Shown one piece after another: positions 3,563-61,603 of a stretch of DNA of 64,000 nt. The number at the start of each line of letters is the position of its first letter. The stretch's first letter is position 1. Source of the stretch: Candidatus Gastranaerophilales bacterium (GTDB lineage: Bacteria; Cyanobacteriota; Vampirovibrionia; Gastranaerophilales; Gastranaerophilaceae); contig CALUWA010000006.1 in assembly GCA_944324365.1 (NCBI GenBank), positions 1,113 to 65,112 of the forward strand, given 5' to 3'. Under the pieces are notes generated by a model. The model made no database searches. It was not told the DNA's origin and saw only the letters and a list, made by a program, of their open reading frames with translations. A program made the translations under genes and the position numbers.

Positions 3563-4720
3563 TTATTTCCAAGGATAGTCGTCTTTGAATGTCCAGCCGT
3601 CACCGGTGAATATTAGGAAACATAATGTAGGAAAGCCTCCGCCATAACTGGACTCTTTGCACATCTCTATAATATCATTTCTTGAAGATATATACATTCT
3701 TGGTAATCTCGGAATCTCAAATTTGCGATTTCCGGTGTTAAATACTGTGGCAATGTCAAAGACGTCACGGCCTACAATATTTGGGGCTTTTTGGCAATTA
3801 ACATCGGTTGTAAATGTTGCAAATTGGTTATTAGACCATAAAGTGATACAAGAGCCGTCTGCCAGTCTAAAGAATGCTCCTCTGGTAATTGAGCCGTCAT
3901 GAAAATATGCATCTTGCCCGTTAAAATTATATGCATGGTATGTATCTGTAAATTTATGAGCTCTGGCTCCGGATGTTCTCAGATACGGCATATAATATTT
4001 TTCTACAAATTCTGTTTGTGTAATTTTGGCCGGTATAGATTCGCCTGTATCCGGATCTGATGATGATATAGGCATATCCCAATATTCCATATCTCCGAAA
4101 TCTTTTACTGCCATTAAATGTGCGTTATATAAAAGAGAATATGTTCTTTTAAGTTGAGTAGCGGTAACAATTTTCTGGTACTTTGCTATAAGCATTGGCA
4201 TTGTCATAGCAGCGACAATACCGATAATGCCAAGGGTAATAAGAACTTCCGCAAGTGTGAAGGCTGCTTTTTCTTTTAGATCGCGGACAGGCTTACGCCT
4301 TCCGCGATGACATGCGGCAGGCAAGATGTACCATAGTTTGTCATCGCGTACTTCGTTGTGCGATCTTTTCTTCTGGATTGCTTCGCTAACTATCGGATTA
4401 TTCGGGTTGTCGCCGGAGTGACGTCCGGCTCCAACTTGCGGGCTGGGGCACTTCGTGCCACGGCACCCTTCCGAAAATCCGACCTCGCAATGACGCCTAA
4501 TGTCATCCTGAACTTGTTTCAGGATCTTACTACCATCGCAATGTGACAATTTGCTTTGGATACTCTTTTCCCGGATTGCTTCACTTCGTTCGCAATGACG
4601 TATGGTGTCATCCTTACAAAGCGAACCGCTGGTTACATTGTCATCCTGAGCGATAGCGAAGGATCTCTTATTTAATGAGATTCTTCGGGCTAAAGCCCTC
4701 AGAATGACAAAAGGCGTCAT
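3563..4720 (-). CDS. type IV pilin-like protein A (prepilin-type N-terminal methylation motif) with repeat-built extended leader
   Basis: KAA|FTLAEVLITLGIIGIVAAMTMP motif (F codon 4261-4259) followed by a 232-aa mature domain ending GDGWTFKDDYPWK; paralog of C. The N-terminal ~153 aa of the track ORF is a translation of palindromic repeats. The frame stays open upstream as far as the G tract at 4819-4830. True initiation is uncertain. Confidence 0.75.
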   Translation of the reverse strand: MTPFVILRALARRISLNKRSFAIAQDDNVTSGSLCKDDTIRHCERSEAIREKSIQSKLSHCDGSKILKQVQDDIRRHCEVGFSEGCRGTKCPSPQVGAGRHSGDNPNNPIVSEAIQKKRSHNEVRDDKLWYILPAACHRGRRKPVRDLKEKAAFTLAEVLITLGIIGIVAAMTMPMLIAKYQKIVTATQLKRTYSLLYNAHLMAVKDFGDMEYWDMPISSSDPDTGESIPAKITQTEFVEKYYMPYLRTSGARAHKFTDTYHAYNFNGQDAYFHDGSITRGAFFRLADGSCITLWSNNQFATFTTDVNCQKAPNIVGRDVFDIATVFNTGNRKFEIPRLPRMYISSRNDIIEMCKESSYGGGFPTLCFLIFTGDGWTFKDDYPWK

Positions 4721-4760
4721 TGCGAAACGCGAAGCGTTGAAGCAATCCAGAAAATTGCAA
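4270..4760. repeat. cluster of GC-rich GTCAT...ATGAC palindromic repeat modules inside the leader region of pilin-like A
   Basis: Modules seen: ATCGCGGA-N13-TCCGCGAT (4280-4308); GTCATCCTGAAC-TTG-TTTCAGGATC (4502-4526); GGATTGCTTC...GCAATGAC (~4573-4599); a 69-nt hairpin GTCATCCTGAGCG...CCCTCAGAATGAC (4640-4708); GTCATTGCGAAACGCGAAGCGTTGAAGCAATCC (~4716-4748). Homologous modules occur at 55562-55632 and 61012-61640. Confidence 0.85.
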
Positions 4761-4818
4761 TACCGGGTTTTAAAAGTGTCTAAAAGGCTGAAACTATCTC
4801 CAAAAGCGGAGAGTCTAG

Positions 4819-4830
4819 CCCCACCCCCCC
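4819..4830 (-). repeat. interrupted homopolymer (G7-T-G4 on coding strand) after the upstream ATG of pilin-like A
   Basis: Plus strand reads CCCC-A-CCCCCCC. It sits 14 codons after ATG 4871-4869 (SD GGAGG 4885-4881). As assembled, the frame stops at TAG 4817-4815. Confidence 0.9.
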
Positions 4831-4907
4831 TGGAGAATATAGGTATAATCAGTGTTTTCAGATTTTAACATTTGATATATCCTCCATAAATTCAAGTATC
4901 TGTTAAT

Positions 4908-4936
4908 ATTTTAACGTGTGTTTCTACATTTTTCAA
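4908..4936 (-). promoter_or_regulatory. sigma70-type promoter of pilin-like locus A
   Basis: Minus strand TTGAAA (4936-4931), 17-nt spacer, TAAAAT (4913-4908), about 35 nt upstream of ATG 4871. Near-identical module at locus C. Confidence 0.6.
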
Positions 4937-5029
4937 TATTAGATTTTTAATTAGCTCTCCAGATGTGTAATTGTATTTATAAAGTTTTGGTTTATGATAA
5001 TATTGTTTTTAAGATAAGGGAGAAATTTT

Positions 5030-54874: not shown

Positions 54875-55702
54875 TTACTTCCACGGATAATCGTCTTTGA
54901 TTTGCCAGCCATCGTAAACTATTATCGCAAAACAAGCTGCTTGTTTGCCTCCATTGTATGTGTGTGTTTTGCAGCCGGAGTTGTTCATTATTTGTTCTCT
55001 AGGAAATGATTTAAACGCATCAAGTCCTGCAATAAATGGTTTTTTGTTGTTCATGTAATATAATTCAAAAATATCAAAAATATCCCTGCCGTATATATTT
55101 GGGCCTTTTTCACAATTTAAATCTGTCGTTAATACAACATACTGATTATTAGACCACAGTGTAAGACAAGAGCCATCGGACATTCTGAAGGAGCTGCCTC
55201 TGCCATGAACATTATCGTATTGAATATCTTGTCCGTTAAAATTGTATGCTTTGTATAATCCGGATTTCTTTTTCTGATGCTGCAGGTACGGCAGATAATA
55301 TCTTTCAAGAAATTCATCATTAGTTATACTTCTTTGGTTATTTTCATCAGTAATCGGGTAGTCCCAGTATATTGAATCCCCGTAATCATTAACCGCCATC
55401 TGGTAAGCATTAGAAAGGAGTGAATAAGTTCTTTTAAGCTGGGTAACAGTCACGAGTTTTTGGTACTTTGCAATTAACTGCGGCAAAGTCATTGCCGCGA
55501 TAATTCCGATTATGCCGAGGGTAATAAGGACTTCCGCTAACGTGAATGCTGCTTTCTTTTTGTCATCCTGAGGATGAAATCCGAAGGATCTCTTGCTTAA
55601 TGAGATTCTTCGGGCTTTGCCCTCAGAATGACGATTGGTGTTCTTCTTACAAAGGAAGCCGCCAATAATCCAAGAAGCATTGTAATGTCGTACCTCAGGC
55701 AC
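54875..55702 (-). CDS. type IV pilin-like protein C, upstream start out of frame (OFF as assembled)
   Basis: KKKAA|FTLAEVLITLGIIGIIAAMTLP (F codon 55546-55544). The mature domain is a paralog of A and ends YDGWQIKDDYPWK. The track start is a GTG without an SD. The frame is open upstream to the G12 tract. Confidence 0.78.
   Translation of the reverse strand: MPEVRHYNASWIIGGFLCKKNTNRHSEGKARRISLSKRSFGFHPQDDKKKAAFTLAEVLITLGIIGIIAAMTLPQLIAKYQKLVTVTQLKRTYSLLSNAYQMAVNDYGDSIYWDYPITDENNQRSITNDEFLERYYLPYLQHQKKKSGLYKAYNFNGQDIQYDNVHGRGSSFRMSDGSCLTLWSNNQYVVLTTDLNCEKGPNIYGRDIFDIFELYYMNNKKPFIAGLDAFKSFPREQIMNNSGCKTHTYNGGKQAACFAIIVYDGWQIKDDYPWK
55562..55632. repeat. 71-nt GTCATCCTGAGG...CCTCAGAATGAC palindromic module inside the leader of pilin-like C
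   Basis: Imperfect long hairpin. Same module as 4640-4708 and 61044-61111. Translated in the pilin frame as HSEGKARRISLSKRSFGFHPQDD. Confidence 0.85.
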
Positions 55703-55788
55703 TCGGGCTTCGCCATCAGAATGACGACATAGCGCGGACTTTAACCTGTCTAAAAGGCTGGAACTTTCTCCAAAAGCGGAGAGCCTAG

Positions 55789-55800
55789 CCCCCCCCCCCC
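55789..55800 (-). repeat. homopolymeric G12 tract after the upstream ATG of pilin-like C
   Basis: 12 consecutive C on the plus strand, starting 14 codons after ATG 55841-55839 (SD GGAGG 55855-55851). The assembled phase terminates at TAG 55787-55785. Confidence 0.95.
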
Positions 55801-55877
55801 TGGAGAATACCGGTATAATCAGTGTTTTCAGATTTCAACATTTCGTATATCCTCCATAATTTCAAGCTTCTGTTAGT

Positions 55878-55906
55878 ATTATAACGTATTTTTTGATATA
55901 TTTCAA
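55878..55906 (-). promoter_or_regulatory. sigma70-type promoter of pilin-like locus C
   Basis: Minus strand TTGAAA (55906-55901), 17-nt spacer, TATAAT (55883-55878). Confidence 0.65.
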
Positions 55907-61266: not shown

Positions 61267-61295
61267 TTGCAAAATTTGTGAACGTCGTTTATACT
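61267..61295 (+). promoter_or_regulatory. sigma70-type promoter of pilin-like locus D
   Basis: TTGCAA (61267-61272), 17-nt spacer, TATACT (61290-61295), followed by AAAAGGAGGA and ATG 61318. Confidence 0.55.
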
Positions 61296-61348
61296 AATAG
61301 AAAAGGAGGATATAGATATGCAAAAGTCAAGTATAGCGCGGAAACACC

Positions 61349-61358
61349 GGGAGGGGGG
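61349..61358 (+). repeat. interrupted G tract (G3-A-G6) after the upstream ATG of pilin-like D
   Basis: Located 10 codons after ATG 61318. The assembled frame stops at TAA 61369-61371. Confidence 0.9.
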
Positions 61359-61603
61359 TATCTGCATCTAAGTCAGGGCAAGGGTTTGTGCCCGTTTGCC
61401 ATTGCGGCGAGCCTGAGGCTCTACACTATGACGCTGCGCTTCGTGGAATGCTACAATTAATCCAAGAGAAGAGATCGCGGACAAACCTTTGGTTTTCCGC
61501 GATGACATGTGGCTGGCGGAAGGTTCCAAAACCTGTCATCACGCACTTGTTGCGCGATCTATGAATTGCTTCGTCGCAAGCTCCTCGCAATGACGAGAAA
61601 TAT

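Follow-up and report, generated by a model that had tools for sequence, protein, structure and literature searches.

Why would two genes in one genome share a nearly identical 5' end when the proteins behind it have drifted far apart? The question was raised by two stretches of a 64,000-nt piece of DNA (the window, by which we mean the whole piece) from a genome of 2.05 Mb in 36 contigs with 36.5% GC, whose closest relatives are MAGs titled Candidatus Gastranaerophilales. To our knowledge, no member of the gut Melainabacteria (Gastranaerophilales) has been cultured, and nothing has been established about their surface biology. We consider it likely that the two stretches belong to a poly-G switch cassette carried by 12 paralogous prepilin-like genes, switched by slippage and homogenised by gene conversion.

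Window positions 4778-4915 (locus A) and 55748-55888 (locus C), both on the minus strand, were 89.9-90.0% identical over 138-141 nt without a gap, both by alignment and by BLAST (E about 1e-48), which bears out the claim of an earlier note that the two align almost base for base. A 44-nt core pattern running from the Shine-Dalgarno sequence (SD) to codon 10 occurred exactly twice in the window, with no occurrence expected from 100 shuffles. Read along the minus strand, each copy carries the SD GGAGGATATA, an ATG, the peptide MLKSENTDYT(Y/G)ILQ and a 12-nt tract (G7TG4 in A, G12 in C), followed by a conserved 41-nt block, CTAG(A/G)CTCTCCGCTTTTGGAGA...TTTTAGAC. Every element that the note had assigned to the shared module was present, but its start had been drawn too short: the similarity begins upstream of 4915 and 55888 and reaches the -35 box. 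At both loci, the frame set by the ATG stops after 18 residues at a TAG just past the tract, and a shift of one base opens a frame through a long palindromic-repeat stretch into KKAA|FTLAEVLITLGIIG. At the protein level, A and C share 58% identity in their mature domains, in line with the earlier estimate of roughly half. The features of locus A are as follows:

4908..4936, minus strand: promoter-like site TTGAAA-17-TAAAAT, the best sigma-70-type match in the region (10/12)
4869..4885, minus strand: SD GGAGGATATA (4885-4876), a 4-nt spacer and the ATG (4871-4869)
4831..4871, minus strand: pre-tract ORF MLKSENTDYTYIL, followed by the CA of codon 14 (CAG)
4819..4830, minus strand: tract G7-T-G4 (12 nt) in the OFF phase; the ATG frame stops at TAG 4817-4815 after 18 aa
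4778..4818, minus strand: post-tract block CTAGACTCTCCGCTTTTGGAGATAGTTTCAGCCTTTTAGAC, which reads ARLSAFGDSFSLLD in the pilin frame
4262..4777, minus strand: rest of the leader, pilin frame open through palindromic repeats of the GTCAT...ATGAC type
3563..4261, minus strand: mature prepilin-like domain, FTLAEVLITLGIIG... to ...DDYPWK, 232 aa and stop

The position of the promoter-like site is conserved in the aligned copies, and the G of the codon-14 CAG is the first base of the tract. The post-tract block holds stops for both wrong frames (TAG 4817-4815 and TAG 4782-4780), and the total leader comes to about 203 codons from the ATG. The 385-aa ORF of this locus had no exact protein match on record. 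Locus C has the same layout:

55878..55906, minus strand: promoter-like site TTGAAA-17-TATAAT, the best match in the region (11/12)
55839..55855, minus strand: SD GGAGGATATA (55855-55846), spacer and ATG (55841-55839)
55801..55841, minus strand: pre-tract ORF MLKSENTDYTGIL, followed by the CA of codon 14 (CAG)
55789..55800, minus strand: tract G12 in the OFF phase; the ATG frame stops at TAG 55787-55785
55748..55788, minus strand: post-tract block ARLSAFGESSSLLD, which contains a stop for each wrong frame
55547..55747, minus strand: rest of the leader, pilin frame open through palindromic repeats
54875..55546, minus strand: mature prepilin-like domain, 223 aa and stop

Its total leader is about 98 codons, and the proteins called for this locus range from 174 to 391 aa.

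The earlier note had described a module duplicated between A and C. A count across the genome gave a different picture: the pair are two members of a family of 12 copies of what we call the class 1 cassette, and the sister species (G015 = CALUUU01) has at least nine. The cassette extends over about 210 nt, beginning about 75 nt ahead of the ATG and ending about 84 nt past the tract. It consists of a -35/-10 promoter-like site, the SD GGAGGATATA, an ATG, 14 codons, a run of G11-14 and stops in both wrong frames. All 12 copies have a promoter-like site, SD, ATG and tract of their own, with the SD and ATG invariant or nearly so, and in each the tract (G11-G14) lies 42 nt past the ATG. The block shared by A and C extends for about 40 nt more in the 3' direction in 10 of the other copies (RLKSLLCRHSEG); the continuation at locus A is of the sister-species type, unlike that of the copies bearing RLKSLLCRHSEG. 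In the open frame, each of the 12 runs into a prepilin-like ORF with a mature domain of 221-262 residues. The note had asked whether the module also stands ahead of unrelated, non-pilin genes; none of the 12 copies lies upstream of any other kind of gene.

The frame logic is as follows. A tract of G11 (or of 8 or 14 with standard flanks) joins the ATG to the leader and prepilin frame, G12 leads to a stop after 18 aa, and G10 or G13 to one after about 31 aa. Three of the 12 loci are ON, with G11, the ATG in frame and ORFs of 386-441 aa; the other nine, including both loci in the window, are OFF, with G12 except for a single G14 and a single G11 whose pre-tract sequence differs. The stops are conserved, with TAG or TAA directly past the tract and TTTTAG for the other wrong frame in 19/19 aligned copies from two species. 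Between the tract and the prepilin motif, a distance of 44 to 201 codons, the pilin frame contains no stop at any locus.

A genome-wide census placed these tracts in context. The lengths of G/C homopolymers were bimodal, with 6, 3 and 2 tracts of 7, 8 and 9 nt, and 14, 6, 7, 1 and 5 tracts of 10 to 14 nt. The 33 tracts of 10-14 nt exceed what base composition would predict for a genome of 36.5% GC, and most of the long tracts lie about 12 codons past a start codon, upstream of pilin-like genes. The class 1 cassette itself was seen in this genome and the one sister species only; it was found in none of 15 other genomes of the genus and in none of 24 further relatives. A metagenome scan with the loose pattern TATTCTCCRGGGGGGG returned 120 unrelated contigs, none of which carried the module. 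The arrangement is broader than the sequence: short ORFs with G9-G14 and other cassette sequences stand before pilin-like genes widely in the order, and the closed, HiFi-assembled chromosome of a related species (L195) has the same architecture. Contigs of related MAGs (G012, G014 and G015; for example G012:C17:1-76 and G015:C94:1-85) often end in or at cassettes, so draft genomes probably understate the number of pilin-like genes and of their switches.

Two further module classes occur in the window. The earlier note took locus D to keep only the core of the shared module, which proved not to be the case: D carries a separate module class with 16 copies in this genome, and the module of locus B belongs to a third class. 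The class 2 feature is:

61274..61387, plus strand: module of locus D (MQKSSIARKHR, G3AG6, YLHLSQGKGF), 91% identical to the class 2 query

Elsewhere, the class 2 cassette (MQKSSIARKYR, G8-10, YLHLSQDKGF) is present in 23, 29 and 34 copies in three other genomes of the genus. Class 2 cassettes group by species, a grouping for which recent duplication is the alternative. Poly-G tracts of 11-14 nt were also found inside non-pilin genes outside the window, namely at G000:C1:206670-209284, where there are three ORFs of about 300-390 aa, one with an N-terminus that looks like a family 2 glycosyltransferase, and at G000:C4:69192-69205, where, by the look of the sequence alone, an ORF motif resembles a putative pyruvyl transferase. 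Such genes suggest that surface glycans may be phase-variable too.

If tract length is a switch, it should differ at one locus between samples. We traced near-identical proteins from other samples, by way of homologues and cluster members, to the contigs that encode them; the tract lengths obtained are those of assembly consensus sequences rather than reads, and exact-protein look-ups favour OFF alleles. Locus C, recognised by its flanking genes, had G12 in eight assemblies (including L237, L251, L252, L254-L256 and L264), G10 in L253, and G11, the ON length, in L258, L262 and L263. L237 and L258 were identical over 5,696 nt save for one G in the tract, although these may be two assemblies of one low-coverage sample (about 3x). 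At locus A, the G7TG4 of the window was replaced by G8TG4 and by G13 in two other assemblies, and the sister-species locus adjoining adhE had G10 in four assemblies, G12 in seven and G13 in one. Tract-length polymorphism on otherwise near-identical contigs was thus found at locus C, at locus A and at the sister locus.

There is also an alternative route to ON at locus A: in L259 (ERZ16268241 scaffold_13468), the tract is G12 and a 13-nt deletion brings the pilin frame into register. The 13 nt lost, CTAGACTCTCCGC, lie right after the G12, and their loss restores the frame and removes the first wrong-frame stop. Gene calls from other samples include full-length proteins that begin at the cassette ATG (MLKSENTDYT...), for locus C (P0128, P0129 and P0135) and for locus A (P0146). 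Leader length also varied and was always in frame: 67, 98, 139, 166 or 168 codons at locus C in other assemblies, and 168, 183 or 203 codons across assemblies at locus A. The length differences (L237, L251-L256 and L258-L264, corresponding to window 55547-55747 and 4262-4777) consist of palindromic repeat units gained or lost.

Illumina consensus is error-prone at G10-14, so individual ON and OFF calls are uncertain. Taken to its extreme, this would mean that all loci are truly in frame and that the switch is an artefact of short-read homopolymer assembly, a reading to which the coverage of some contigs (2.5-4x) lends some weight. It is nevertheless most improbable, given that G12 at locus C recurs in eight assemblies made with different pipelines, that the HiFi chromosome of the related species has the same architecture, and that the wrong-frame stops are conserved alongside an excess of 10-14 nt tracts at just this position in the gene.

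The same alleles bear on whether the shift of frame happens in the DNA at all. Long homopolymers are known to cause transcriptional slippage, and RNA polymerase slippage or +1 ribosomal frameshifting could give a constant low yield of full-length protein, with the cassette setting its level in place of a heritable switch. This would suit the observations that the commonest assembled length, G12, is one base from the pilin frame and that most loci sit one step from ON. We regard it as unlikely to be the main explanation: tracts at the same locus differ in the DNA itself, ON lengths included, all three phases occur among the copies, and both wrong frames have conserved stops. Slippage by polymerase or ribosome and a switch in the DNA are not mutually exclusive, and the former may add leakiness to the latter.

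We next consider what keeps the copies alike. A tree of 18 cassettes, built from the SD to +42 with the tract removed, split by species with support of 85/86. The mature domains told the reverse story, in that each sister-species gene paired with a gene of this genome, giving six cross-species pairs. Each data set rejected the topology of the other: a one-species grouping of the mature domains was rejected with a p-AU of 1.7e-86, and the cassette alignment rejected the cross-species pairing with a delta lnL of 105 and a p-AU of 8.8e-65, values that overstate independence because the species-diagnostic cassette sites are clustered. The comparison of module and mature-domain phylogenies proposed in the earlier note thus revealed discordant histories.

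Codon positions pointed the same way. Among the copies of this genome, identity at codon positions 1/2/3 was 88/92/90% in the pre-tract ORF and 83/97/43.5% over codons 1-25 of the mature protein. Relaxation at third positions was absent from the cassette codons, whereas synonymous sites were saturated in the pilin N-terminus, indicating that the genes are old and conserved as proteins while the cassette is alike at the DNA level. In a four-gamete test, 193 of 325 pairs of informative sites had all four gametes. Windowed identity showed where the homogenised unit lies:

upstream of -75: no similarity, even between nearest relatives
SD to codon 7: 85-95% whichever copies are compared
codons 8-14: 92-95% within a species, 74-75% across the two
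+42 to +84, past the tract: 76-83% within a species, 34-46% across the two

Nowhere in the 5' unit were cross-species nearest relatives more alike than other cross-species pairs. For scale, adhE is 93% identical in nucleotides between the two species; the divergence of the cassette between species is at least that of adhE, yet the cassette is uniform within each, which is the pattern of concerted evolution.

Mosaic copies were also found. The copy C35 (G000:C35:3166-3302, outside the window) joins a different promoter and pre-tract ORF (MQKFNYSLISR) to a class 1 post-tract block, with the G run as the junction between foreign and class 1 sequence, and L012 joins a pre-tract part of its own species to a post-tract part of the sister-species type. 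The 5' ends of paralogues are thus more alike within a genome than those of nearest relatives across species, gene bodies show the reverse, similarity extends to synonymous sites, and some copies are mosaic. The discordant trees, the codon-position identities and the four gametes bear the signature of gene conversion. They support the earlier proposal of selection on the module or conversion between sites, in favor of the latter; selection alone is taken up below.

Strict orthology of the cross-species pairs was considered and ruled out, since four of the six mature-domain pairs had a dS of 1.6-2.2, far above that of adhE with its 93% nucleotide identity. These four pairs are nearest relatives that predate the species split, which does not weaken the discordance but makes dating impossible. 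The dN/dS of the mature domains, 0.03-0.17, is that of purifying selection, so the OFF copies are not pseudogenes.

Could purifying selection on the nucleotide sequence alone, acting on a regulatory RNA structure or a protein-binding site without any recombination, account for the uniform cassettes? A promoter, SD and start codon must be conserved in any case, and the RNA fold of locus A pairs the SD with TATATTCTCC (z = -2.4). The folds differ between copies, however, with z only -1.2 in two of three, and selection would leave unexplained why paralogues share species-specific states that are absent between cross-species nearest relatives; we give this reading very little credence. An Rfam search found no family match, with sub-threshold chance matches in the palindromes only. 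RNA structure as the main cause of conservation was set aside, as the pairing of SD and TATATTCTCC was seen in locus A only and the folds were inconsistent.

In a different reading, a mobile, promoter-bearing element resembling a MITE would have been inserted independently before every pilin gene of either species, and these insertions, in place of gene conversion, would account for the species-specific similarity. In its favor, even nearest relatives have unrelated sequence beyond -75, small palindromic repeats of mobile appearance abound in the leaders, and contigs of related MAGs often break at the module. We nevertheless find this very unlikely. No terminal inverted repeats bound the unit, all 12 copies are fused in frame to prepilin leaders with none elsewhere, positional counterparts in the sister species bear the cassette at the same place, and the mosaic patterns fit exchange between resident copies.

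One such counterpart deserves description. L044 (G015:C33:8168-11836), the gene beside adhE in the sister species, corresponds by position to locus A (window 3563-4950). Its cassette and early leader are A-like (84% identity), and its mature domain is closest to that of locus C (81% nt, 91% aa), so mature domains have moved relative to 5' parts. The codons for Phe-Thr-Leu at the cleavage site also differ by species: noted at window 4247-4261, 55532-55546 and in paralogues, they are mostly TTC ACG CTT here and TTT ACN TTA in the sister species, with locus C keeping TTA. Homogenisation may accordingly extend into the first codons of the mature protein.

Returning to gene conversion between resident cassettes, the G run might also be a preferred breakpoint or initiator of the recombination, so that switching and exchange would be mechanistically coupled. 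The parentage of C35 and L012 changes exactly at the tract, and the joining of an A-like 5' part to a C-like mature domain in L044 is a further hint. A G4 motif is needed for pilin variation in Neisseria, which offers a comparison. We rate this coupling as speculative and, on balance, improbable.

We next consider the proteins that the cassette would control. At least 54 genes in the genome have the AFTLAEVLITLGIIG N-terminus, and the N-terminus of the mature domain of locus A scored above the cut-offs for PF07963 (22.7 bits against 21.2) and TIGR02532 (19.9 bits against 16.3). The prepilin signature has Gly at -1, Phe at +1 and Glu at +5, after a short basic leader of about 5-30 residues. Phe +1 and Glu +5 are present here, and Lys or Arg precede the cleavage motif, but at position -1, A, C and almost every long-leader paralogue have Ala (KKAA|FTLAEV), with Gly in several short-leader paralogues, and leaders counted from the cassette ATG are 46-203 residues long. 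Ala at -1 together with leaders of 46-203 residues is unusual for prepilins. Judging from the motif, a prepilin peptidase presumably cleaves at Ala|Phe after these 46-203 residues; removal of a cytoplasmic leader by this enzyme would account for the freedom with which leader length and content vary.

The AlphaFold2 model of the mature domain encoded at window 54875-55546 (pLDDT 90.3) has an N-terminal helix at residues 5-57 (53 residues) followed by a beta-rich domain of five strands and short helices. A Foldseek search of this model against the PDB gave no match below E 0.86. The assignment of PF20318 (DUF6613) in pre-computed tables was discarded, as it was absent from a local Pfam scan with the threshold relaxed to E <= 1. 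Genes for assembly machinery are present in the genome: an A24 prepilin peptidase (PF01478, 40.4 bits), four T2SSE ATPases whose PF00437 matches exceed the cut-off, and two T2SSF platform genes, each with a pair of PF00482 domains.

The mechanism that we favor runs as follows. The cassette would supply each gene with a putative sigma-70-type promoter, a strong ribosome-binding site, the sole usable start codon, presumably the one in use, 14 codons and a G run. The length of the G run would set the frame, with G11 leading to the leader and prepilin domain and the other phases to an early stop. Slipped-strand mispairing at replication is the most likely way in which a single G would be gained or lost, and such changes would toggle each gene independently, such that a population would display varying subsets of pilin-like proteins; slippage as the mutational mechanism is inferred, as are the reversibility and rate of switching. 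Repeated non-reciprocal recombination (gene conversion) would keep the cassettes of one genome alike, apart from the older mature domains.

Several consequences would follow. Dozens of pilin-like genes in the genome appear to be individually switchable, and with uniform, interchangeable switches, the control of expression and antigenic or functional diversity could evolve as separate modules. On the practical side, gene callers truncate or miss cassette-headed genes and assemblies break at cassettes, and the cassette sequence could be used as a probe that lists the whole switchable repertoire of a genome or metagenome. A full-text literature search returned no report of phase variation in this lineage.

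Among known systems, the opa genes of Neisseria have CTCTT repeats in the region coding for the leader peptide and number up to 11-12 loci per genome. The likeness extends to a multigene family of surface proteins with a promoter per locus, a slippage-prone repeat in the leader-coding 5' end that sets the frame and allows independent switching, and frequent recombination between the loci of one genome. The systems differ in that the repeat here is a homopolymeric G run rather than a pentamer, the signal is of the prepilin type (class III) rather than a Sec signal, the leaders are 46-203 residues long with translated palindromic repeats, the host is a gut Melainabacteria commensal, and it is the 5' cassette that is homogenised, in front of old and distinct mature domains. 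For Opa, 77% of the diversity has been attributed to recombination within the isolate, alongside the CTCTT switch (PMC3960869).

Another comparison is with pilC1 and pilC2 in Neisseria, which undergo phase variation through a G run inside the reading frame (Jonsson et al. 1991, as cited in PMC5953494); this is a run of 9-20 nt near the 5' end that, like the one here, frameshifts a pilus-related protein. PilC is a pilus-associated adhesin or modulator of retraction, in contrast to the pilin-like subunits seen here, and there are two pilC genes, without a shared multi-copy promoter-leader cassette, as opposed to dozens of genes.

The vlp family of Mycoplasma hyorhinis reportedly has a highly conserved 5' block, comprising promoter and signal peptide, with a homopolymeric tract, and thus resembles our cassette in heading divergent surface genes with a common 5' block whose tract controls each gene independently. 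The vlp tract is poly-A in the promoter spacer and acts on transcription, whereas ours is poly-G in the coding leader and would act on translation; the vlp products are lipoproteins rather than prepilin-like proteins. Campylobacter jejuni is also AT-rich and has a marked surplus of G/C tracts, about 9-13 nt long, which frameshift genes for surface structures, and like it, this genome has poly-G in glycosyltransferase-like genes. In Campylobacter, the genes that bear the tracts are unrelated and have no promoter-leader cassette in common.

The earlier note had spoken of expression sites, a term that fits insofar as conversion occurs between copies but not in the sense of pilE/pilS: there are no promoterless silent donors feeding a single expression site, since all 12 copies have their own promoter-like site, SD, ATG and tract, and hence their own switch. 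The homopolymer frameshift switch is of the opa/pilC type and its mechanism is textbook; the lineage and the gene family are new, as are the concerted evolution of the cassette, the tract alleles across samples and the restriction to two species.
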